Assembly: GCA_963667255.1 (NCBI GenBank)
Contig: OY762940.1
Coordinates: forward strand, 1,079,503 to 1,143,502
Reading direction: 5' to 3'
Origin: Candidatus Cloacimonadota bacterium
GTDB lineage: Bacteria > Cloacimonadota > Cloacimonadia > G963667145
Length of the DNA stretch: 64,000 bases
Made by a program: the position numbers and the translations under genes. This document shows positions 3,712-63,273 of this stretch, one piece after another (positions within the stretch are counted from its first letter, which is position 1; each line of letters opens with the position of its first letter). The notes beneath the pieces are model-generated. The model was given only the letters and a program-made list of their open reading frames with translations. It had not been told where the DNA came from and made no database searches.

Positions 3712-4329
3712 ATGAATATAATTTTTGATTATTTAGGACTTGCTGGAGCGTTTGTTATGGCTGTCTCTGGGACTTTGACGGCGATGCAGAAGAGGTTTGA
3801 TATTTTTGGCATCGTTATTATCGCTTTTGTTACAGCAGTCGGTGGAGGAACTCTCAGGGATATGCTAATCAATGGTAGGTCTGTTTTTTGGTTGCACGAT
3901 TTACTTTATATTTATGCCATTTTTGCGGGGACGATTTTTGCCATTATTTTCAGAAATTATTTGAGTTATCTTCGACAAACTTTTTTGGTCTTTGATGCCG
4001 CAGGATTGGCACTTTTTACCATTTTGGGTGTTCAGATAGGAATTGATTTTAGCTTAGATTTTTTGGTTTGCATCATTTTGGGAACTGTTACGGGAGCATT
4101 TGGAGGGATTTTGCGGGACATTTTTGTTGGCGATGTTCCTATCATTTTCAAGCAAGAAATTTATGCCACCATTTCTATACTGGGAGGAGCGTTCTTTTAT
4201 CTGCTCGATAGTTATTGTGATTTGGTGTATTTGACCAAAATTTTACCCATAATTTTCATTATAGTCAGCAGAGTGATTGTGGTGCGTTACAAAATACATC
4301 TTCCGTGTTTTACTCTAAAGGAAAAATGA
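3712..4329 (+). CDS. UPF0126/TRIC-like membrane protein (YadS/YicG family)
   Basis: Two repeated halves each with G-G-x-(L/I)-R-D motif (GGGTLRDM, GGILRDIF) and multiple TM helices; ATG at 3712 preferred over upstream ORF-track start. Confidence 0.55.
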   Translation: MNIIFDYLGLAGAFVMAVSGTLTAMQKRFDIFGIVIIAFVTAVGGGTLRDMLINGRSVFWLHDLLYIYAIFAGTIFAIIFRNYLSYLRQTFLVFDAAGLALFTILGVQIGIDFSLDFLVCIILGTVTGAFGGILRDIFVGDVPIIFKQEIYATISILGGAFFYLLDSYCDLVYLTKILPIIFIIVSRVIVVRYKIHLPCFTLKEK

Positions 4330-4352
4330 TTGTGGTTTCATATCAATAAAAA

Positions 4353-4373
4353 AAGAGCCGATTTTCGGCTCTT
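4353..4373. terminator. Bidirectional rho-independent terminator hairpin between convergent genes
   Basis: agagccga-ttt-tcggctct stem-loop flanked by A-run upstream and T-run downstream. Confidence 0.5.
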
Positions 4374-4392
4374 TTAGTTGTCTAAAACTTAA

Positions 4393-5325
4393 TTAGTCTC
4401 TATTTTCTCTAAAATAAGGTATTCCCAAAGATTTTGGAGTTTGGGAAATTCTCCCTCTCAGGTTAACATAAAGCAAGAAAACTATAGTCGCAAGATAGGG
4501 AATAGTGTTCAAAAGGAAAGTCGGCACATGAAATCCCATCGCTTGAAGTCGTGGTTGCATAGCTTCCAAAATTCCGAAAAGGAAAGCCCCGCCGAAAGCG
4601 TAATAAGGATTCCAGTTGGCGAAAATAACCAAAGCGATAACAATCCAACCTTTCCCCGAGGTCATCTTTTCCACCCAAAACGGAGTGTAGCAAAGGGAAA
4701 GATATGCTCCGGCAATACCTGCCAAAAATCCTCCGAAAATAGTGCAAAGATATCTGATTTTAATAACATGTATTCCCATGATTTCGCTGGCGAGAGGCTC
4801 TTCTCCTGCGGATTTTACGCCGAGTCCGTATTTGGTTTTGTTGAGGAAAATCCAAGCACAAATCACCAAAACATAGCTAAGGTAAACCAAAATATTTTGG
4901 TCAAAAAATACCAGTCCGATAAGTGGAATTTTGGACAAAAGAGGAATGGCAAGATTGGGAAGATGATGAGACAGAGATTTGCCGATTAGCTCTTCACCCA
5001 ACATAGCACTAAGCCCTGTGCCAAAAGTGGTTAAAGCAATTCCAGTTACATATTGGTTTGTTCTCAGAGTGATGGTCAAAAAAGCGAAAATCAAAGAGAG
5101 TAACAAACCTACAACTCCCGCTAAAAGTATTCCGAGAGCAATGCTATTGTAGTGAAAGGCTGTTCCAAACCCGACACATGCTCCCATAAGCATCATTCCT
5201 TCTATACCAAGGTTACAAATTCCGGATTTCTCCGTGATAATTTCCCCGATAGTGGCGAACAGGACAACCGTGCCACTGGCGACACCTGTAATCAATATAG
5301 ATTGTAAAACTGTATACCAACTCAT
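4393..5325 (-). CDS. ABC transporter permease (BMP/nucleoside-type, second permease)
   Basis: Polytopic membrane protein, typical branched-chain/sugar-type ABC permease architecture, in operon with dual-domain ATPase. Confidence 0.7.
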   Translation of the reverse strand: MSWYTVLQSILITGVASGTVVLFATIGEIITEKSGICNLGIEGMMLMGACVGFGTAFHYNSIALGILLAGVVGLLLSLIFAFLTITLRTNQYVTGIALTTFGTGLSAMLGEELIGKSLSHHLPNLAIPLLSKIPLIGLVFFDQNILVYLSYVLVICAWIFLNKTKYGLGVKSAGEEPLASEIMGIHVIKIRYLCTIFGGFLAGIAGAYLSLCYTPFWVEKMTSGKGWIVIALVIFANWNPYYAFGGAFLFGILEAMQPRLQAMGFHVPTFLLNTIPYLATIVFLLYVNLRGRISQTPKSLGIPYFRENRD

Positions 5326-7926: not shown

Positions 7927-8152
7927 ACTTCCTCCTAATCAAACAGTTATTAATCAAAATATTACAACATCTTGACCATACAAAGCAATGACAAAAATAG
8001 TGGCAAGGAAAAATTCTAAATTTTGACCCCTCTATTTTTCGGACTAAAAATTCATATGTGATAAAAAAATCGTTAATATATTTAGTAAAAAATGTTTGAC
8101 ATATAAAAAGGAATTTTCTCAAATTGACAAAGAAATATCACATAACAAGGAG

Positions 8153-9244
8153 ATGATGATGAGAAAAAGAGCAAAATTGTTTCTCACAGTTGTAGCGATG
8201 CTTTCTTTGACAGTTAGTTTGATGGCTGCAGGTGTGGACGAATTGAGAGTAGGAGCGGTATATATTGGACCTGCTCGTGACGGTGGTTGGACTCAAGCCC
8301 ACGATGATGGTATTGAGTCTTTGCGTGATTTGCCTTATGTAAAGAAAATCATGAAAAAAGAGGAAGTTCCGGAAAGTTCTGAAGCTAGTAAAGCTATGAC
8401 TCAAATGATCAAATTGGGAAAATGTAATCTTATTTTTGCCACTTCTTTTGGTTACATGGATCAATCTTTGGGTGTAGCTAAAGATAATCCAGATGTAGTT
8501 GTCATGCACTGTTCCGGATACAAAACAGCTGATAATATGGGAACATATTACGGTAAAATTTACCAAGCTAAATTCTTGGGCGGTATGGTAGCTGGAATGA
8601 TGACAAAGTCTAACAAAATCGGTTATGTTGCTCCTATCGCTATCCCTGAGATTTATCGTCTTGTTGATGCTTTCGCTCTTGGTGTAAAATCTGTAAACAA
8701 AAAAGCCAAAGTGCAAGTTGTTTGGGTTGGTTCTTGGTTCGATCCTGCCAAAGAGATGGATGCCGCTAAATCTATGATTGAGCAAGGTTGTGATGTTATT
8801 ACCCAAGGTGGAGACTCTCCAGCTCCTCAACAAGCTGCTGAAAAAGCAGGTGTTTGGGCTATCGGTCATGACAATGACATGAGTGCTTATGCTCCTACAA
8901 AGAGCCTTACTTCTGTGGTATGGCACTGGGGTGTAATTTACAAGATGGTAGCAGAAGCTGTTCATAATGGGACTTGGAAAGCTCAAGGTCCTTCTGACTT
9001 TTGGCCAGATATCAGCACTGGTGTAGCTGGTCTTACACCTTATACCAAAAATGTACCTAAGAAAGTTCAAGACAAAGTTGAAGCTATGAAGGCGAAAATT
9101 GTTAGCGGTGACTACAAAATTTTCGAAGGTCCTCTTTATGATCAAGACGGCGAACTCAGAGTTAAGAAAGGTCAAGTTATGAAACCTCAAGAACTTTTGA
9201 GCATGGACTGGCTTGTTGACAACATCGTAGGGAATAAAAAATAA
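8153..9244 (+). CDS. BMP-family (Med/PnrA-like) ABC transporter substrate-binding lipoprotein
   Basis: Signal peptide MMRKRAKLFLTVVAMLSLTVSLMAAG, BMP-family periplasmic binding fold pattern; divergently transcribed from permease/ATPase operon; start chosen among ATG triplet after RBS aaggag. Confidence 0.7.
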   Translation: MMMRKRAKLFLTVVAMLSLTVSLMAAGVDELRVGAVYIGPARDGGWTQAHDDGIESLRDLPYVKKIMKKEEVPESSEASKAMTQMIKLGKCNLIFATSFGYMDQSLGVAKDNPDVVVMHCSGYKTADNMGTYYGKIYQAKFLGGMVAGMMTKSNKIGYVAPIAIPEIYRLVDAFALGVKSVNKKAKVQVVWVGSWFDPAKEMDAAKSMIEQGCDVITQGGDSPAPQQAAEKAGVWAIGHDNDMSAYAPTKSLTSVVWHWGVIYKMVAEAVHNGTWKAQGPSDFWPDISTGVAGLTPYTKNVPKKVQDKVEAMKAKIVSGDYKIFEGPLYDQDGELRVKKGQVMKPQELLSMDWLVDNIVGNKK

Positions 9245-12160: not shown

Positions 12161-12397
12161 AATCTTTACTCTCTTCGAGCAATGAAATTTTGTGTCAATG
12201 AAAATCTGTTTGATGAAATCTTCACTTTTAATTTGACAAAAAATTATTTAATTAAATTAATCGAGCATGTTTCCGAGTTCACTATCTCGTAGCGATTATC
12301 AGAACCGCCGAATACTGAACCGTTAGGGCATAATTGGAAACGATTATACCTCCCGCATTTGGAAAGGAAACAAAACCAAATTAGGGAGGATTTTAGT

Positions 12398-31450: not shown

Positions 31451-31540
31451 TGGCGGAGATGTAGGGATTCGAACCCTAGATACAGGTAACCGTATACACG
31501 CTTTCCAAGCGTGCTCCTTCAACCACTCGGACACATCTCC
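31451..31540 (-). tRNA. tRNA-Ser (anticodon GGA), with encoded CCA
   Basis: Manual fold: acceptor GGAGATG/CATCTCC, anticodon stem CACGC/GCGTG with loop TTGGAAA, long variable arm, TTCGAAT T-loop. Confidence 0.85.
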
Positions 31541-31958: not shown

Positions 31959-32035
31959 TGGCACGCCCGTAGGGATTCGAACCCCAAACCTTCTGATCCG
32001 TAGTCAGATGCTCTATCCAATTGAGCCACGGGCGC
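31959..32035 (-). tRNA. tRNA-Arg (anticodon ACG), with encoded CCA
   Basis: Manual fold: acceptor GCGCCCG, anticodon stem TCTGA/TCAGA with loop CTACGGA, GGTTCGAAT T-loop. Confidence 0.85.
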
Positions 32036-37962: not shown

Positions 37963-38225
37963 CGAGTTCCGATAATAAGGTTCCTGTACAACTTAATATT
38001 TTTGGCATTTCTTACAAATTTATGGTGGATGCAGGGAGTGAAGACAAATTTAAAATTTGTGCAGAAAAATTAAATAAACTGATAAGTCAAGAAAGTGCGA
38101 AGAGGGGAGACGCGATGTCTCAAATCAAGATTTTAGTTTTGCTTTGCTTGGATTTTTTGTCTAATCAGATAGATAGTGAAGAAGTGATTATCAGAATAGA
38201 AAATTTATTAGATAAAAGCCTGTAA
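37959..38225 (+). CDS. zapA: Cell division protein ZapA-like
   Basis: PVQLNIFGISYKF N-terminal motif and about 88-aa helical tail. Confidence 0.55.
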   Translation: MTSSDNKVPVQLNIFGISYKFMVDAGSEDKFKICAEKLNKLISQESAKRGDAMSQIKILVLLCLDFLSNQIDSEEVIIRIENLLDKSL

Positions 38226-38414
38226 TATTTGTGATAGTTGGCTAATTATATCATTTGAACTAATTATAATTAGGGATGTAAGCTTCTACTTTTGGCTTGT
38301 GCCGAGATTGTACTCGGATTTGCGAAGTAGGTTTAGATGAATATCCCACCTTGAATTTAAGTTCAAGATAAGCTTAGCTACACGGTATTATGGGTTTTTG
38401 TTTTTTTTAAGGAG

Positions 38415-53383: not shown

Positions 53384-55387
53384 CTAATTATCAAACCAAA
53401 TCTTTTCTTGCTCGAATGCTTGAGCAAAAAGCATTTCATCGCCGAAAATAACGGTTGCTCCCTGCAGTTCTGATAGTTGTAGCATTGTTGTTTTTCTCGG
53501 CTGATAGACCATATCCATCACAACTTGTTCAGGTCTGAATTTTGCTACTAAACTTTTGTTTTCGTTCATTCCCACGCTGGTTGCGTTGATAACCACATCA
53601 AAATTAACACAATTTTTTTCGGCTTCTTCGAGGGTGCAAGAGGTAAAATCGCCGATATTGGATAGCTCATCATTTTTTTGCAATGACCTTGCGGCTATAG
53701 TGACCTTGGCGTTTTCTTTTAATAGCCCGAATAGAGCAGCTTTGGCAGCACCACCATTCCCGAGAAGCAAAACTTTCTTACCAGCAAGAGAACAATTATA
53801 GGAGAGAGGTTTAATCGCTCCGATATAGTCGGTATTAAATCCGAGCAATTTCCCTTTTTCGTTTTTGAGGGTGTTGACGGCACCGATTTTTTGAGCGGTT
53901 TCATCCAATTTATTTAGTAAGGGCAAAACCTCTTGTTTAAAAGGCATTGTTATAGCCACACCTTTCCATCCATACGATTTGAAATTAGCCAAAAATTCTT
54001 CGAGTTCAGGTCCGCTGTCGATAGGGAAATTTACAAAACAGGCGTTGATTTGCTTGCTCAAGAATTGCTGATTGTGGTAGGCTCGAGAAAAGCTCTTCTC
54101 AATATTTTTGCCGATAAGCCCGTAAACACAGGTATTTTCGTTGGTGTTCAAGACTCCATACATATCGGTGAGAGTGCTCAAATCTATCTGTCCCGGAGCG
54201 ACAGCTTTCCCAGTTGGTAAAAAAGAGTAGGTGAAAGGCGAGCCGTACTTTAGGGAAAGAATTCGCGAAAATTCCCCTTTGACTCCCATGCCGAAAGCAA
54301 TAAGGTTGGGAAATTTCTTCAAGGCATTAAAGAGCAAAAAGTTGTCATTTATGTTGTTTATCAAAGTTGCAACTTTTAGGTAAGGAGTTCCCAAAATCTC
54401 CATTTTAGAGATGATTTCCACTATATTTTTAGGCGTCTCTGCAAAATTGTGATAAGATAAAACGATTTTTGAGTTCAATTCGCTGAAATCCAAATCTTTG
54501 CCCAAATCGTATTCAATATCGATAAATTCAAACCCAAGTTTGTCAATTTGCAAAATAGCTTTCTTGTATTCTTCTTCCGTAAGATTGGCTTTTCCGCCTT
54601 GTTTAACGGTTCTCAGGGTTGCTATAACGCCTCTTTTGTTCCAAGTGTCTAAATTATTGGGAATTTCGTTCAGATAGTCCAAGCGAAACTCCGCCAAATA
54701 ATGCAAACTCCTGATGTAATCTATCTCTTTTTTGGCATTTTGGACATCAGATTTGCTAACACAAACACAAATTTTTGGCAGGTAAACAGAGGAAAGAGGC
54801 TTTTTTCTTTTCGGTGTAATCTTTTTGCATAAAGCCAACAACTCATGAGCTTTTTCGCGTAGTTCCTGCAAAGAGCCGTAGTTTTCCACTATGTGGTTGC
54901 AATTTGTGATAAGAGCGTTGTTCTTTTGCGAGTTTATTCTAGAGAGAAGAGAGCTGTTTTTGATTTGCAGTCTCTGAATTTGCAAGTCCACAGAGGTTTC
55001 GACATTCACATCCAAGTCAAAACAATCGCTGATGTTGCGAGAAAAAACAGGCGGGATTTCCACGAAAATCAAATCTTCTTCTTGTTTCTTTATAATGTCT
55101 TCGATTGTTGCCAAAATCACGGGATGAGTAATCTCGTTTAGCTTATTTAGTTTTTCGCTATCCGAAAATGCTAACTTGCTCAAAGAATTTTTGTCTATTT
55201 CGTTATCACAATTCAATATCGATTCGAAAAACTCTTTGACCAAATCGTCTTTGACCAGGGGTAAAATTTGGTGTCCGACTTCATCGGCATAAACTATTTT
55301 GCAGTCCAGTTCTTCCAAGAATTTGCAGAGCGACGACTTCCCGCAACCTATTGTTCCAGTGATGGCGACTAAGGTTTTTTGTTTCAT
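53384..55387 (-). CDS. Tri-domain fusion: dephospho-CoA kinase (CoaE) / 3-dehydroquinate dehydratase type I (AroD) / shikimate dehydrogenase (AroE)
   Basis: N-term ITGTIGCGKSS ... ITHPVI (CoaE-like); middle FGMGVKGEFSRILSLKYGSPFTY (type I DHQase motif); C-term ITMPFKQ, NTDYIG, GNGGAAKAA (AroE motifs). Confidence 0.65.
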   Translation of the reverse strand: MKQKTLVAITGTIGCGKSSLCKFLEELDCKIVYADEVGHQILPLVKDDLVKEFFESILNCDNEIDKNSLSKLAFSDSEKLNKLNEITHPVILATIEDIIKKQEEDLIFVEIPPVFSRNISDCFDLDVNVETSVDLQIQRLQIKNSSLLSRINSQKNNALITNCNHIVENYGSLQELREKAHELLALCKKITPKRKKPLSSVYLPKICVCVSKSDVQNAKKEIDYIRSLHYLAEFRLDYLNEIPNNLDTWNKRGVIATLRTVKQGGKANLTEEEYKKAILQIDKLGFEFIDIEYDLGKDLDFSELNSKIVLSYHNFAETPKNIVEIISKMEILGTPYLKVATLINNINDNFLLFNALKKFPNLIAFGMGVKGEFSRILSLKYGSPFTYSFLPTGKAVAPGQIDLSTLTDMYGVLNTNENTCVYGLIGKNIEKSFSRAYHNQQFLSKQINACFVNFPIDSGPELEEFLANFKSYGWKGVAITMPFKQEVLPLLNKLDETAQKIGAVNTLKNEKGKLLGFNTDYIGAIKPLSYNCSLAGKKVLLLGNGGAAKAALFGLLKENAKVTIAARSLQKNDELSNIGDFTSCTLEEAEKNCVNFDVVINATSVGMNENKSLVAKFRPEQVVMDMVYQPRKTTMLQLSELQGATVIFGDEMLFAQAFEQEKIWFDN

Positions 55388-57452: not shown

Positions 57453-58913
57453 TTATTTATCAAATATTTTCGTCATTTCTCTATCGGGAGTTTTGCCTGA
57501 CAAAGAAACAACAATAATTACAATGGAGGCGATAATAAATCCGGGCAATAATTCGTATAAATCAAAAAGACCACCGCTTAAATTTTTCCAAATGATGATG
57601 GTCGCTCCTCCGCTTATCATTCCCCCAATGGCAGCATAGCGAGTCATTCTTTTCCAAAAGAGGCTAAATAAAAGCACCGGTCCGAAGGCTGCTCCAAAGC
57701 CTGCCCAAGCATAAGAAACTAAGCCGAGAACCGAAGAGTTTTGATTGGAAGCAATAATTCCCGCTAACACGGCAACGGCTACAACAGTAATTCTGCTGAC
57801 ATAAACCAACTCTTTTTCGCTGACATCTCTTTTGGTAAAAAACTTGTAAAAATCTTCGGTAAAAGAAGAGGCTACTACGATGAGTTGAGAATCGGCGGTG
57901 CTCATCACGGCAGCAAGAATGGCAGCGAGCATTATTCCGGCAACAAGCGGATGGAAGAAAACTTCGATTAAGAGCATAAAAACTTTTTCGGAGTCGAAGC
58001 CCGCAGGAACGGCTGTAGAGTGAGTGTAAGCATAGCCGATAAGCCCTATCAAAGTGGCGGCTGCAAGACTGACAACAGTCCACGAAACTGCAATAACTCT
58101 GGCTGGACGGACATCTTCTTCTGATTTCAGCCCCATAAATCTGGTGAGAATATGCGGTTGCCCGAAATAGCCAAGCCCCCAAGCCATGGAAGATAAGATT
58201 GTCAGTAGCGAAAGATTTTCTGAGGCTCCAAACTCTCTGAAAATCGATAAATGGTCGCTTATCAAAGAAAAATTGCTGGAAAATATTTTGTATCCAAAAA
58301 TACAGACGAAGCAGATGGAAAACAGCATCAAGAGTCCTTGGAAAAAATCTGTCCAAGACACAGCCAAAAATCCGCCCAAAAAGGTATAGCTGATGATAAC
58401 CACTACGGAAATGAGCAGGGAGTAAATGTAGGGAATGCTGAAAACGGTGTTGAAAAGTTTGGCTCCGGCGACAAATCCCGAGGAGGTATAAATTACAAAA
58501 AAGATAATGATGAAAGCACCAGATAGGAAACGAAGAGTTTTGGATTTATCTTGAAATCTGACTTCCAAATATTCGGAAATTGTCAGAGAATCGTCGGCTG
58601 ATTCGGTAAATCTACGAAGTCTTTTAGCAACGAATTTCCAGTTGCACCAAGTGCCGATAGCAAGACCTAAAGCCATCCAAAAAGCTCCGGCAAGTCCGAA
58701 AGCATAAGCTGCTCCGGGCAGTCCCATCAAAAGCCAACCGCTCATATCCGAAGCACAAGCCGACAGAGCTCCAACCCAAGGACCAAGCGACCTACCGCCC
58801 AAAACATAATCGGACAAACTTTCTGTTTTGCGATAAAAGTGCAAACCGATGAACAGCATAAACACGAAATACAAAGTAAAGGTCAAATAAATACTTCCGT
58901 TATTGACAAACAT
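57453..58913 (-). CDS. Sodium:solute symporter family transporter (PutP-like)
   Basis: SSF-family 13-TM layout; start set at internal Met (MFVNNGS). Confidence 0.75.
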   Translation of the reverse strand: MFVNNGSIYLTFTLYFVFMLFIGLHFYRKTESLSDYVLGGRSLGPWVGALSACASDMSGWLLMGLPGAAYAFGLAGAFWMALGLAIGTWCNWKFVAKRLRRFTESADDSLTISEYLEVRFQDKSKTLRFLSGAFIIIFFVIYTSSGFVAGAKLFNTVFSIPYIYSLLISVVVIISYTFLGGFLAVSWTDFFQGLLMLFSICFVCIFGYKIFSSNFSLISDHLSIFREFGASENLSLLTILSSMAWGLGYFGQPHILTRFMGLKSEEDVRPARVIAVSWTVVSLAAATLIGLIGYAYTHSTAVPAGFDSEKVFMLLIEVFFHPLVAGIMLAAILAAVMSTADSQLIVVASSFTEDFYKFFTKRDVSEKELVYVSRITVVAVAVLAGIIASNQNSSVLGLVSYAWAGFGAAFGPVLLFSLFWKRMTRYAAIGGMISGGATIIIWKNLSGGLFDLYELLPGFIIASIVIIVVSLSGKTPDREMTKIFDK

Positions 58914-59641
58914 TAATTCACTCCTTATAAAAAACAAATTAGGATTCTCACAATGTGTAATAATCACGATAAGTCAGTATTTTGTAACTTATTTTATTGT
59001 CAAATCTAAAAAATTAATCTTTGTTCATTCTTTGAAAGGGGAAACGAGCCAAAAAAACTTCTTTTGTTATAAGGTTGTTAAGATAGCTACTTTTCCCATC
59101 CATCCTCATTCCAGCGAAAGCGGTAATCCAGTCGGGACAAGGTAGGGACATTAGCACTAGCTTCTTTATAAAAAACGAGTTAAGAACGGGCATGAGGATT
59201 AGAGGAGCAGGGAACTTAAACAACAATTCCGTCAGACCCCAATCAACTAAGGCTGGACAACGATTTGGCAAGGGGCTATGTGGATTATTTGGGGGATAAT
59301 AACCTTGATAGAACAGGGAAGAAGAAGGGCAATGATACGAGTATGGCAACGCCAAAGAGAGTGGCACAACCTACTGCTCAAACTCCTGTGCAAAACTTGG
59401 CTCCACAGCCAAAGCCCGAAGAAGAAGAGGAAACAGCAAGAGACGACACAAACGGATTTTGAGAAAAGTCTTGACTTTCTCCTCGAAAAGAATGTTTTGG
59501 GTTTGTTTTAAAGGCAAAACTCTTGACAATTATCCTCACAATCGCCCATTGGATTGTAGTGGGCATAGGAGGAAACGATGGCAAAGGAAAAGTCCTCTTG
59601 GTTGACCACGGTAAAACCACAAAATTGAGGGGAAACACGAA

Positions 59642-60292
59642 ATGAAAGCTATCTTGATATCGCTTGTTGAGAGCATCTTTGCTAATCCTGCAAACTATGG
59701 AATATTTCTTCTTTGTTGTATAGTTTTAACCGCTATTGTAACTATTAAGATTAAAGGGTTTTTGAATAAATGCAAAAATTCTAACAAAAAGTTTGGTAAT
59801 ATAGATAAAAGCTTTGTTAATGTTAATGAAAAGATGGATTCTTTTGGTGGGAAGCTTGATGCTATAGGTGCAAGTTTGATGAATTTATGCACTGCATTAC
59901 ACGAAAAAAAAGTGGTTGTAAAGAATTATACTCCCCAAGCTTTAATTCAGTCAAGTAGCCCCATTAATTTAACAGAAAACGGTATTAAATTTGTAGAAAA
60001 AAGCGGGGCTAAAACTGCTTATTTGTCTATGAAGCAAGAGTTAACCGATAAAGTCCTTAGCAATGCTCCTTACAAAAATTATTTAGACTTTGAACAAGCG
60101 TGTTTAAGGGCAATTGATAACACTCAAAGAGAAGAATTGAACGAGCCTAAAAACTACATATATGAAAATCCTGTTACTAATGGTATTGCTGTTACTATCT
60201 ATGACATTGTTAAAATGATAGGAATTATGCTCAGAAATGACATCTTAAAAGAACATAAAGATATTGTTACCAGTTCGTTAAAAAAGAAATAA
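59642..60292 (+). CDS. Hypothetical membrane-anchored protein
   Basis: N-terminal hydrophobic helix (GIFLLCCIVLTAIVTI); no recognised catalytic motif; directly upstream of Panacea-domain gene. Confidence 0.35.
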   Translation: MKAILISLVESIFANPANYGIFLLCCIVLTAIVTIKIKGFLNKCKNSNKKFGNIDKSFVNVNEKMDSFGGKLDAIGASLMNLCTALHEKKVVVKNYTPQALIQSSSPINLTENGIKFVEKSGAKTAYLSMKQELTDKVLSNAPYKNYLDFEQACLRAIDNTQREELNEPKNYIYENPVTNGIAVTIYDIVKMIGIMLRNDILKEHKDIVTSSLKKK

Positions 60293-60306
60293 TTTTGGAG
60301 TAAGTT

Positions 60307-60780
60307 ATGGGAAAGAAAATTGATGCTGTAGCTATTGCTAAATGGTTTTTGTGCAATATTGATTTGGCAAGTGGAGATTTAATAACTCATTTAAAGTTGC
60401 AAAAATTAGTTTACTATGCTCAAGCGTGGTATTTGGCTCTCAACGACAAAGAGTTGTTTCCCGAAGAAATAGAAGCGTGGGCTCACGGTCCGGTTGTTCC
60501 TTGTATTTTCCAAGCATTTAAAGGGAATGGATTTGACCCTATTCCTTGCCCAAGTGATTGCCCTGTTTTCGATAAGGAAATAACCTCACATCTTAGCGAA
60601 ATACTGGATGTCTATGGTATTTATGAAGCAAAATATTTGGAAAGATTAACTCATCAAGAAGCTCCTTGGCTGCTTGCAAGAGGGAATTTACCTATTGAGG
60701 TTTCTTCTCACAATATTATTTCCAAAGAGAGTATGAAAGATTTTTACAAAAAAATGAACGAAGAAAACAAGAGTGCATAG
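60307..60780 (+). CDS. Panacea-domain (DUF4065, SocA/GepA-like) protein, putative antitoxin
   Basis: LKLQKLVYYAQAWYLA ... WAHGPVVP motifs characteristic of DUF4065. Confidence 0.55.
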   Translation: MGKKIDAVAIAKWFLCNIDLASGDLITHLKLQKLVYYAQAWYLALNDKELFPEEIEAWAHGPVVPCIFQAFKGNGFDPIPCPSDCPVFDKEITSHLSEILDVYGIYEAKYLERLTHQEAPWLLARGNLPIEVSSHNIISKESMKDFYKKMNEENKSA

Positions 60781-61204
60781 GATAAATGCAAAGGTAAATA
60801 ACGAGAACAAAAAAGCCTTTTATGATACATCTATAAAACCAAAAGAAGATTTCCCCAATGTTAGCTTAAAATATTTTAATGATGGGTTTGAGTGTTTTAG
60901 TGAATGGGGAAAGAAAGAGTTAAAGGGGCTTACATCTTTTATAAAAAAACTAAGAAATTCGACTTGGCAAAAGATATTTAACTCTGGTGGCAAGTGTAGT
61001 AAAAACAGTAAGAATGGTTTTGCCTTAACTACTCACAAAGGCAGCAATATTATCAAGAGGCTTTCTGGGAAATTGGCTTATATAGAAAAAAAAGAAATTA
61101 TTTTTTTTGAACTTAGAACGAGTGGGAAAGCGAGAGTTCACGGATTTAAACAAGGGGAAACATTCTTTTTAATTCTTCTCGATAGAAATCACAAACTCTA
61201 TTAA
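60773..61204 (+). CDS. Hypothetical protein, candidate toxin/effector partner of the Panacea-domain protein
   Basis: 8-nt overlap with upstream gene suggests translational coupling; basic protein, no recognised motif. Confidence 0.3.
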   Translation: MHRINAKVNNENKKAFYDTSIKPKEDFPNVSLKYFNDGFECFSEWGKKELKGLTSFIKKLRNSTWQKIFNSGGKCSKNSKNGFALTTHKGSNIIKRLSGKLAYIEKKEIIFFELRTSGKARVHGFKQGETFFLILLDRNHKLY

Positions 61205-61926
61205 TAAATTCTTGTAAAAACAGTAATAGTATAGCCTCCTTTGTAGCCTTCTTTGGGAGGGAATACAGCTTTGGTAACAAGCCTGTCTTTCGATTGTTCA
61301 ATGATGGGGTCGCAAATATCTCCATCGTAAACTAACATCTTTTCGCTATAAGAATATGGAACTCTGTATGGGTCTGTGGAAACTTGGCTTGTCCCATCTA
61401 AGTAAAATGCTTCTGTTTGATTTTTGTGATAGTCTTGACCTGTCTTGTAATGATTGTATAGGTCAAACTTAGTCTTCCAAGTCCCAACCATATAGTCATC
61501 TTTATTCAGATAGCAGGTAGCCTTGATGTAGTATGTTCTCTCTAAATCGTCATACTTTTCTTTGGTTATTCTGTAAGCGAATTTGTCGCCTTTTCCTGCG
61601 AGCAGGAGATTGATTTCTTTTTCGATAAACGATGTAACTTTGCCGTTCTTTTCGGCATCGTAGGTGGTAACACTACCAGAGACCTCGACTCCTCTGTCGA
61701 TGAGAGTCTTGCCAATGAGCATTCGCACTACTTTGTCGTAGGCTTCGTTCTTGGTTTCGCCCTCTTGCAAATGATAGGTGGCTTCTTGGACTGTCTCGTG
61801 GTAGATTGACTTCTGATATTTGAACTCTACTGGGTCTCTGAAATAGTAGTCTCTTGGGTGCCACATAGCAAGCAAAGAAGTGAATATGAGTGTGAGCAAG
61901 ATGAGTAGAGATATTAGCTTTTTCAT
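61201..61926 (-). CDS. Hypothetical secreted protein/lipoprotein
   Basis: Signal peptide MKKLISLLILLTLIFTSLLA; RBS aggaga upstream of internal ATG. Confidence 0.45.
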   Translation of the reverse strand: MKKLISLLILLTLIFTSLLAMWHPRDYYFRDPVEFKYQKSIYHETVQEATYHLQEGETKNEAYDKVVRMLIGKTLIDRGVEVSGSVTTYDAEKNGKVTSFIEKEINLLLAGKGDKFAYRITKEKYDDLERTYYIKATCYLNKDDYMVGTWKTKFDLYNHYKTGQDYHKNQTEAFYLDGTSQVSTDPYRVPYSYSEKMLVYDGDICDPIIEQSKDRLVTKAVFPPKEGYKGGYTITVFTRIY

Positions 61927-62104
61927 TTTACTTGGTCTCCTTTTTTGATTTATTTGAGTTTTCGGGGCATAGGTTGTCAAGAAATTTTAATCTTGTTGTT
62001 TTTATGCAAAAATTCCTTCTTTCAAATAAAAGTTGTTGACACCTGACACGATTTAATAAGTTTCAAACAAAATTTTATAGATATGTTTAACGAAAGGGGT
62101 GTAA

Positions 62105-62815
62105 ATGAACTCATCGCAAATTTTGGCTAAAATGCAAGGTATAGATGATAAGATTAGCGATTTGCTTAAAAAGTCCGCACATCTGCCGGAACAGCTCAAA
62201 GGTCTGCAAGATAAGAAGAGCGAGACAGGAACGGCGTTGGATGAACTTGTTGAGCAAATAAAAAAGTGCAAGGAGTCGCAAAGCTTGTTGGAGCTGGAAG
62301 TGCAGACTAACAAGAACTTGGTCGAGAAATACAAAGAGCAACTTAACTCTATATCTAACAACAAGGAATACAAGGCTTTAAATAGTGAAATAACGCTAAT
62401 TAAAAGCAAAAATGTGCAACTTGATGAAAAAGAGCTCGGTTTGATGGAAGAAGAGAAGTTATTGAATGAGCAGAAGAGAGTTGCCGAAGAGAACAATATA
62501 TCTGCAAAAAAAGCTCTCGAAGAGGGTGAGGCTACTATCAAGGTGCAGATTGACGAAGTGAACAAGCAGATAGAAGCTGAAAAGTCCGAGAGGAATGCAC
62601 TTGCCGGAAAATTGCCGACCTCCCTTGTAAAACAATATGTTCTCTTGATAAAGAAGAAGAATCGTAAAGCTGTTGCTTTTGCTTATAAAGACGCTTGCAG
62701 TGAATGTGGCTTTCGTTTGCGTCCACAATTGCTCTTGGAGCTTGATACTTGCAGTGAGCCGAAAGTGTGTGAGAATTGTGGCAGGTTTTTGATTAAATTG
62801 GAAGAAAATAAATAA
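62105..62815 (+). CDS. Coiled-coil plus C-terminal zinc-ribbon protein (COG1579/DUF164-like)
   Basis: Long heptad-rich region followed by CSECGFRL...CENCGRFL zinc ribbon. Confidence 0.55.
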   Translation: MNSSQILAKMQGIDDKISDLLKKSAHLPEQLKGLQDKKSETGTALDELVEQIKKCKESQSLLELEVQTNKNLVEKYKEQLNSISNNKEYKALNSEITLIKSKNVQLDEKELGLMEEEKLLNEQKRVAEENNISAKKALEEGEATIKVQIDEVNKQIEAEKSERNALAGKLPTSLVKQYVLLIKKKNRKAVAFAYKDACSECGFRLRPQLLLELDTCSEPKVCENCGRFLIKLEENK

Positions 62816-62827
62816 AGATATATTTTT

Positions 62828-63248
62828 GAGGAGAGGATAACATCTCTGCCGAAGTCGATTTTGTTGGCTTCGAAGGAAAGTCCGAACACCGCAGAGCAGA
62901 TTGCTTCTTAATACGGAAGTCTTGGCAACAAGGAATAATCCAACAGAAAGATACTCCAAGCACCTATTTTAGCTTTCAAATTTGTAGAAAATAGGTATAT
63001 TAAAAAGGCTAAAATAGGTGCTTGATAAGGTGAAATGGTGGTGTAAGAGATCACCGGCACGGAGCGTGAGCCTCGTGGACAGGGAGTTTCAATCGGTGCA
63101 ATGCCAAATAGGGGACTGATAGGTTGCTCGCCTTGCTAAGGTCTCGGGTAGGCAGCAAGAGTCGGTTAGTGATAATCGACCGAGATAAATAGAGATAGTT
63201 TGGCTGTTTAGTAGGTCAAAGACAGAATTCGGCTTAATATCTTCTCCT
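62828..63248 (+). ncRNA. rnpB: RNase P RNA (bacterial type A)
   Basis: Conserved blocks GGAAAGTCCGAACACCGCAGAGCAG, GGTGAAATGGTGGTGTAAGAGATCACC, GGGTAGGCAGCAAGAG and 3' ACAGAATTCGGCTTAAT; 10-bp P1 helix aggagaggat/atcttctcct. Confidence 0.8.
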
Positions 63249-63273
63249 TAAAATAATCAAAAGAATGTTGTTA

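Follow-up and report, generated by a model that had tools for sequence, protein, structure and literature searches.

What is the block of three plus-strand genes at positions 59642 to 61204 of a 64,000-nucleotide stretch of contig OY762940.1 from a Candidatus Cloacimonadota bacterium (the whole stretch is hereafter called the window)? An earlier note, made from the letters of the DNA, had proposed a candidate toxin-antitoxin (TA) or small defence module, in which a Panacea-domain (DUF4065) gene is flanked by two genes of unrecognised nature. It was found that the three open reading frames (ORFs) lie exactly where the note had placed them, with the claimed overlap of 8 nucleotides (nt) between the second and the third. 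The answer offered here, at a probability of roughly 75%, is that the second and third genes are a panA-panT pair, a type II PanAT module of cluster T1 carried on an acquired AT-rich insert and encoding an RNA-cleaving toxin of the RelE fold, and that the first gene is separate from it. The genes are as follows.

59642-60292, plus strand: ORF1, 216 amino acids (aa), membrane-anchored, of a family without description, probably co-transcribed with panAT.
60307-60780, plus strand: ORF2 or panA, 157 aa, a stand-alone Panacea (DUF4065) antitoxin with no extra N-terminal domain.
60773-61204, plus strand: ORF3 or panT, 143 aa, with a GTG start, of the MAG6450 family or PanT cluster T1, a putative mRNA endonuclease.
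60773-60780, plus strand: the overlap of the panA stop and the panT GTG start, 8 nt, sequence GTGCATAG.

The central gene was confirmed as a Panacea gene. The two motifs quoted for it in the earlier note, LQKLVYYAQAWYLA and WAHGPVVP, are present, and residues 31-121 match PF13274 SocA_Panacea (E=5.1e-17, 63.2 bits against a cut-off of 25.7). A match to phrog_1281 was also found (E=2.8e-44). Since its score against the NCBIfam model SocA_antitoxin (NF047745) is 68 bits and the cut-off is 190, ORF2 is not a SocA equivalog. The closest PanA relative is about 53% identical, and a GGAG sequence stands 8 nt ahead of the panA ATG. For stand-alone Panacea proteins, direct neutralisation by the domain itself has been described (PMC10440598).

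The third gene, which the earlier note could not recognise, turned out to belong to a named family. ORF3 scores 42.6 bits against the NCBIfam model NF046006 ("MAG6450 family") and passes the curated cut-off of 40. It also matches phrog_8366, and its residues 41-142 align with positions 192-280 of the 284 positions of the PADLOC model of NsnC, that is, with the C-terminal 90 (E=2.4e-7). All of the aligned ORF3 relatives (47 of 47) match both the MAG6450 model and the NsnC model, with a best NsnC E-value of 3e-11. Among 5.8 billion proteins, 192 homologs of ORF3 were detectable, with a top identity of 49%. In the phage and plasmid collections, the only match of ORF3 was in one Pontibacter plasmid. 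The protein is basic, as had been claimed (isoelectric point, pI, 9.98), while ORF2 is acidic (pI 5.3), a charge pattern that fits an antitoxin and its toxin. The family namesake, MAG6450 of M. agalactiae, adjoins MAG6440, which is annotated as "putative prophage protein ps3". This annotation is an old label for DUF4065 proteins, and MAG6440 and MAG6450 are probably the same kind of PanAT pair.

What kind of fold might ORF3 have? The predicted model has the alpha/beta fold of the RelE/ParE superfamily (BECR). In this model, the invariant residues E113, R115, R121, H123, D137, and H140 lie on the strands 111-115, 121-127, and 130-137 and on the tail; E113 and R115 are together on a strand, the following strand has R121 and H123, and the C-terminal end has D137 and H140. 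In RelE, YoeB, and YafQ, the catalytic residues lie on the C-terminal strands and the tail. Four further invariant residues of ORF3, C41, S43, W45, and W65, are specific to the family.

Are the two genes a conserved unit? Loci with ORF3 relatives were collected from viral contigs (7) and from reference genomes (46), the latter belonging to Gamma-, Beta-, Alpha-, and Deltaproteobacteria, Bacteroidota, Clostridia, and Cyanobacteria; neither the source genome nor its relatives are among them. In 52 of the 53 loci that bear the toxin gene (51 that were fetched and L001, an independently assembled copy of the present locus), the gene immediately 5′ of it, on the same strand, is a Panacea gene, and the single unpaired locus is cut off by a contig end. 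The pairwise identities of PanA and of the toxin across loci are correlated (Spearman 0.60), and none of 999 Mantel permutations gave a value as high, which indicates joint inheritance of the two genes. The pair has no constant third companion among these loci, where the only recurring neighbours are transposase or integrase fragments. In a longest-ORF survey of the family, the 8-nt overlap was the commonest spacing, seen in 13 of 53 rows including the window copy, and several T1 pairs of Dataset S1 have the corresponding spacing of -8 (PMC8832971). The overlap of panA and panT suggests translational coupling.

Is such a pair already catalogued? In Dataset S1 of Kurata et al. (2022), Clostridium cuniculi PanA WP_133014905.1 and its toxin WP_133014904.1 are listed as pT1/T1, in the order antitoxin then toxin, with a gap of -8 (PMC8832971). 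The latter protein is one of the homologs found here (P0048), with 41% identity to ORF3 (E=8e-22). Three more loci of the scan, those of Methylocapsa palsarum, Paraburkholderia aspalathi, and Giesbergeria anulus (L017, L033, and L036), are also listed as T1 in the same order (PMC8832971). T1 is the first cluster in Dataset S1 and includes many phyla (PMC8832971). Because of the MAG6450 match, the strict pairing, and the listing of the homolog WP_133014904.1 as T1, ORF2 and ORF3 are classified, by their sequences, as a new divergent member of the published cluster T1 of the PanAT type II TA family. Like other T1 pairs, the window pair has a stand-alone Panacea protein encoded first and without an N-terminal domain, and a toxin encoded second with a small overlap; ORF3 is homologous to the listed T1 toxins, and the genes are chromosomal and patchy across phyla. 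Unlike them, the window pair is divergent, resides in a small genome, and has an unrelated membrane-protein gene ahead of it. The two genes can be named with confidence as panA and panT, of the T1 or MAG6450 family, with a RelE-fold putative mRNase as the toxin. The pair adds a divergent small-genome member to the largest Panacea-associated toxin cluster.

The relation of ORF3 to better known effectors is more distant. No sequence similarity to RelE, YoeB, YafQ, or HigB is detectable; ORF3 is about 50 residues longer than these toxins, with disorder at its N-terminus and inserted sequence around residues 71-110, and is paired with a Panacea antitoxin instead of RelB, YefM, DinJ, or HigA. With NsnC of the Menshen system, ORF3 shares the C-terminal effector domain at the level of hidden Markov models. 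Li et al. (2025) described this domain as the BECR RNase domain PB-BECR1, with YafQ as the nearest structure and an H-R-H triad (PMC12065111). In contrast to NsnC, ORF3 lacks the N-terminal inactive-PIN domain, and its match to the NsnC model is confined to the C-terminal third. There is neither an NsnA (ParB-DUF262) nor an NsnB (ABC ATPase) among ORF1, PanA, and the products of the two flanking genes, which are an SSF transporter and a 259-aa ORF; ORF3 is free-standing and presumably antitoxin-controlled, whereas NsnC is ATPase-controlled. SocAB of Caulobacter, a type VI TA system, likewise has a Panacea domain in its antitoxin, but ORF2 falls far below the SocA equivalog cut-off and its partner is of the MAG6450 family, not a SocB-like replication inhibitor. 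The comparison joins three separate labels, the NCBIfam "MAG6450 family", PanT cluster T1, and PB-BECR1 of Menshen NsnC, and this gives a catalytic hypothesis for T1, in which His, Arg, and Glu side chains of a RelE-like sheet take part.

The composition of the block sets it apart from the rest of the window. Its GC content is 0.327, compared with 0.392 +/- 0.032 for 45 background ORFs of the window, and ORF1 (0.309) and the toxin gene (0.317) are each lower than all of the 45. The earlier note had named as the contrary outcome that the three genes might be conserved core genes with a housekeeping role. Both families were found to be patchy across phyla; this and the low GC content speak against housekeeping functions and favour horizontal acquisition as a small, AT-rich insert. 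No att-like flanking repeats or integration scars were found around the block.

How would such a module work? The panA gene would be translated first and the translation of panT coupled to it through the 8-nt overlap. The acidic, stand-alone Panacea protein would bind the toxin directly and hold it inactive. Upon loss of the antitoxin or upon triggering, for example by phage infection or by loss of the element, the toxin would be set free, and this RelE/ParE-fold (BECR) protein of about 140 aa would arrest growth by RNA cleavage, most likely of mRNA and possibly on the ribosome. The cleavage surface may be formed by the six invariant residues of the C-terminal beta-sheet and tail (E113, R115, R121, H123, D137, and H140). 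The role of the module might be addiction and stabilisation of the insert, or abortive-infection defence, and ORF1 would be dispensable for it. PanA-PanT complexes have been pulled down for clusters other than T1, and other PanAs bind their toxins directly and are not ClpXP adaptors (PMC8832971).

Several points weigh against a PanAT T1 module with an RNA-cleaving toxin. The kinship of ORF3 with RelE-type RNases is at the level of the fold only. ORF3 has no match among the Pfam families of RelE, ParE, YoeB, and HigB nor among the corresponding NCBIfam families, and its family profile has no match among PDB sequences at E<=10. A comparison by hhalign with YoeB and YafQ sequences gave a probability below 1%. 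Every Foldseek E-value for the ORF3 model is above 1e-3, and the model is of low confidence at residues 1-18 and about 71-110. Furthermore, the sole T1 pair tested, that of C. cadaveris, was not neutralised in E. coli; SI Table S1 classes its toxin as "mRNase" and gives the outcome as "toxic" and "failed to neutralise", so that one member of the family is known to be toxic (PMC8832971). The antitoxin role of a T1 PanA is therefore a putative one, drawn from analogy and gene pairing. Finally, the spacing of 14 nt between ORF1 and panA, with no predicted terminator, leaves room for a functional link of ORF1 to the pair.

Does ORF1 belong to the system? Its product could be a sensor or trigger, a membrane anchor of the complex, or a second membrane toxin that PanA neutralises. 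The gene is on the same strand, just ahead of panA, and it is as AT-rich as the toxin gene, which suggests joint acquisition. Many PanTs are transmembrane (TM) proteins encoded 5′ of panA; Kurata et al. reported that some PanTs are membrane proteins, that the toxin comes first in 325 of 1268 pairs, and that a third, "accessory" gene occurs sporadically (PMC8832971). Relatives of ORF1 are often found near restriction-modification (R-M), nuclease, or TA genes, as described below. Nevertheless, a three-gene system is judged unlikely. ORF1 homologs are absent from all 53 PanA-MAG6450 loci, nine other genomic loci of the ORF1 family contain neither a Panacea nor a MAG6450 gene, and the pair has no conserved third gene as a neighbour. 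The closest relative of ORF1 (35% identity) lies alone between hrcA and pyrG on a 1.56-Mb contig, without the adjacent small gene that a toxin would need. The TA module of the earlier note thus stands for ORF2 and ORF3, which are paired in 52 of 53 loci and catalogued as T1, and is not supported for the three genes together. Since the two sets of loci do not intersect, ORF1 is regarded as independent: it is probably a sporadic, AT-rich cargo gene and not a conserved part of the panAT module, and it is probably co-transcribed with panAT in an adjacency seen here only.

ORF1 itself has one strong hydrophobic segment (residues 19-37) followed by five Lys or Arg residues, in agreement with the membrane anchor proposed earlier. 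A word-indexed search returned only the protein itself, as if it were an orphan. This was rejected after phmmer had been run exhaustively against 1.84 billion representatives: at E<=1e-3 there are 76 relatives, of which the best is 35% identical (E=5e-29). The relatives are about 190-230 aa in length and align from end to end. In each, a TM helix at the N-terminus leads into a variable coiled stretch, and the conserved domain that follows at the C-terminus is predicted to be cytoplasmic by the positive-inside rule. Three residues do not vary (S106, P107, and R198), and the consensus reads SPxxLTxxG...SGA...LDVE...KNx[VI]YxNP...LR[DN]xYLxxHPE, with the variants D[VI][EQ]. No model in Pfam, PADLOC, PHROG, or NCBIfam covers the family, and no match was found in the phage collection or in the plasmid collection; it is the sole truly undescribed element of the block. 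A single-sequence AlphaFold2 model was unusable (pLDDT 40). When the family profile was compared with PDB sequences, a likeness to influenza haemagglutinin HA2 was found, collinear over HA2 residues 44-84 and 101-165 and including "KNxxYxxPxY", with a whole-sequence E-value of 4e-6 and a per-domain E-value of 0.005. It was rejected as a probably spurious coiled-coil or compositional similarity.

The contexts of the ORF1 family are diverse. The closest relative has a GC content of 0.26 in a locus of 0.44 (L064, 8001-8630) and therefore looks foreign in that locus as well. From the same sample comes a second contig, of 17.7 kb (L065), in which the hrcA/ORF1-homolog/pyrG arrangement is present in two inverted copies (4237-4866 and 8001-8630); the cause may be a variant of the assembly or an inverted duplication. 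In metagenomic contigs (L056-L061), a recurrent gene order was found: a 272-aa gene without a Pfam match, a D12 N6-adenine methyltransferase gene, an ORF1-like gene, and a gene for a 141-aa protein. The 141-aa protein has no Pfam match and carries a PDIVV...EVET motif recalling PD-(D/E)xK nucleases. In another locus (L055), an ORF1-like gene and the same gene, here encoding 140 aa, are followed by a gene for a 386-aa protein without a Pfam match and, farther downstream, by a PLDc_2 gene. These clusters (L055-L061) may be R-M-like or defence cassettes. Another relative stands behind a different D12 methyltransferase gene with a PemK/MazE pair nearby, and others adjoin genes for HNH or PD-(D/E)xK proteins; three contexts have no informative neighbours. 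The 140/141-aa gene and the neighbours of the other ORF1 relatives were considered as hidden Panacea or toxin genes and were rejected with Panacea and MAG6450 models built in this study (E>0.02). As a lead the family is a minor one, with members that recur in mobile or defence islands and have no library description. There is a slight chance that it represents a new stand-alone defence or exclusion protein, or that ORF1 is here a membrane trigger or sensor co-opted by PanAT. If the latter were true, it might bear on the failure of a T1 PanA to neutralise alone in E. coli.

Might the toxin of the panA-panT pair act in another way? The fold-level kinship would also accommodate a ParE-like DNA-gyrase poison or another non-nucleolytic effector of the RelE fold. 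This is thought improbable; the match of ORF3 to the NsnC model lies in an RNase domain, and the tested T1 toxin is classed as an mRNase.

The pair of ORF2 and ORF3 looks intact, judging from its retained invariant and conserved residues: ORF3 has 16 of 16 invariant toxin residues, and ORF2 has 33 of 33 positions that are at least 90% conserved among 50 PanA partners of MAG6450-family toxins. A decaying, inactive remnant is thus very improbable, since these residues, three open reading frames, the family-typical 8-nt overlap, and an identical copy assembled from the independent run SRR34447527 outweigh the small host genome (1.59 Mb; a contig of 1,587,896 bp), a toxin whose nearest relatives share no more than 49% identity with it, and the GTG start of panT with its weak ribosome-binding site. 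The identical copy (locus L001) is a 2,242-bp contig that spans 58984-61225.

As for the flanks, the SSF transporter gene (57453-58967) and the 259-aa ORF (61201-61980) are both on the minus strand; the convergent arrangement stated earlier for the genes around the block is therefore incorrect. ORF1 and the transporter gene point away from each other, and ORF3 and the 259-aa ORF point towards each other. The stop codons of the last two overlap by 4 nt, and therefore there is no room for a terminator between these convergent genes. The 259-aa ORF has no Pfam or NCBIfam match; a signal-peptide-like N-terminus follows an internal Met. A metagenome scan with the SSF transporter as the query found no relative. 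The remaining feature of the locus is the spacer on the other side.

58968-59641, no strand: divergent intergenic spacer, 674 nt, from the SSF transporter gene (minus strand) to ORF1 (plus strand), the presumed promoter region.

The non-coding stretch of 0.7 kb in the earlier note corresponds to this spacer. It has a host-like GC content of 0.414, no tRNA, and no Rfam match at the gathering threshold, nor any at E<=1 except for one spurious match to a long non-coding RNA. Its folding is not unusual (fold z-score -0.75). Promoter-like sites in the spacer are at the chance level, and the promoter and terminator scan likewise gave chance-level results.

Elsewhere in the window, several other features were recorded. 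A bacterial RNase P RNA of class A was found at 62830-63251 on the plus strand (210 bits, E=1e-66), and a CT398-like gene with a coiled coil and a zinc ribbon (62105-62815) lies directly upstream of it. A 6S RNA is at 38214-38400 (plus strand), and a molybdenum cofactor (Moco)/tungsten riboswitch is at 12259-12385 (plus strand). The tRNA genes at 31451-31540 and 31959-32035, both on the minus strand, encode tRNA-Ser(GGA) and tRNA-Arg(ACG). A 667-aa ORF at 53384-55387 (minus strand) resembles, on inspection by eye, a fusion of a P-loop kinase (GTIGCGKSS, dephospho-CoA-kinase-like), a dehydroquinase, and a shikimate dehydrogenase.

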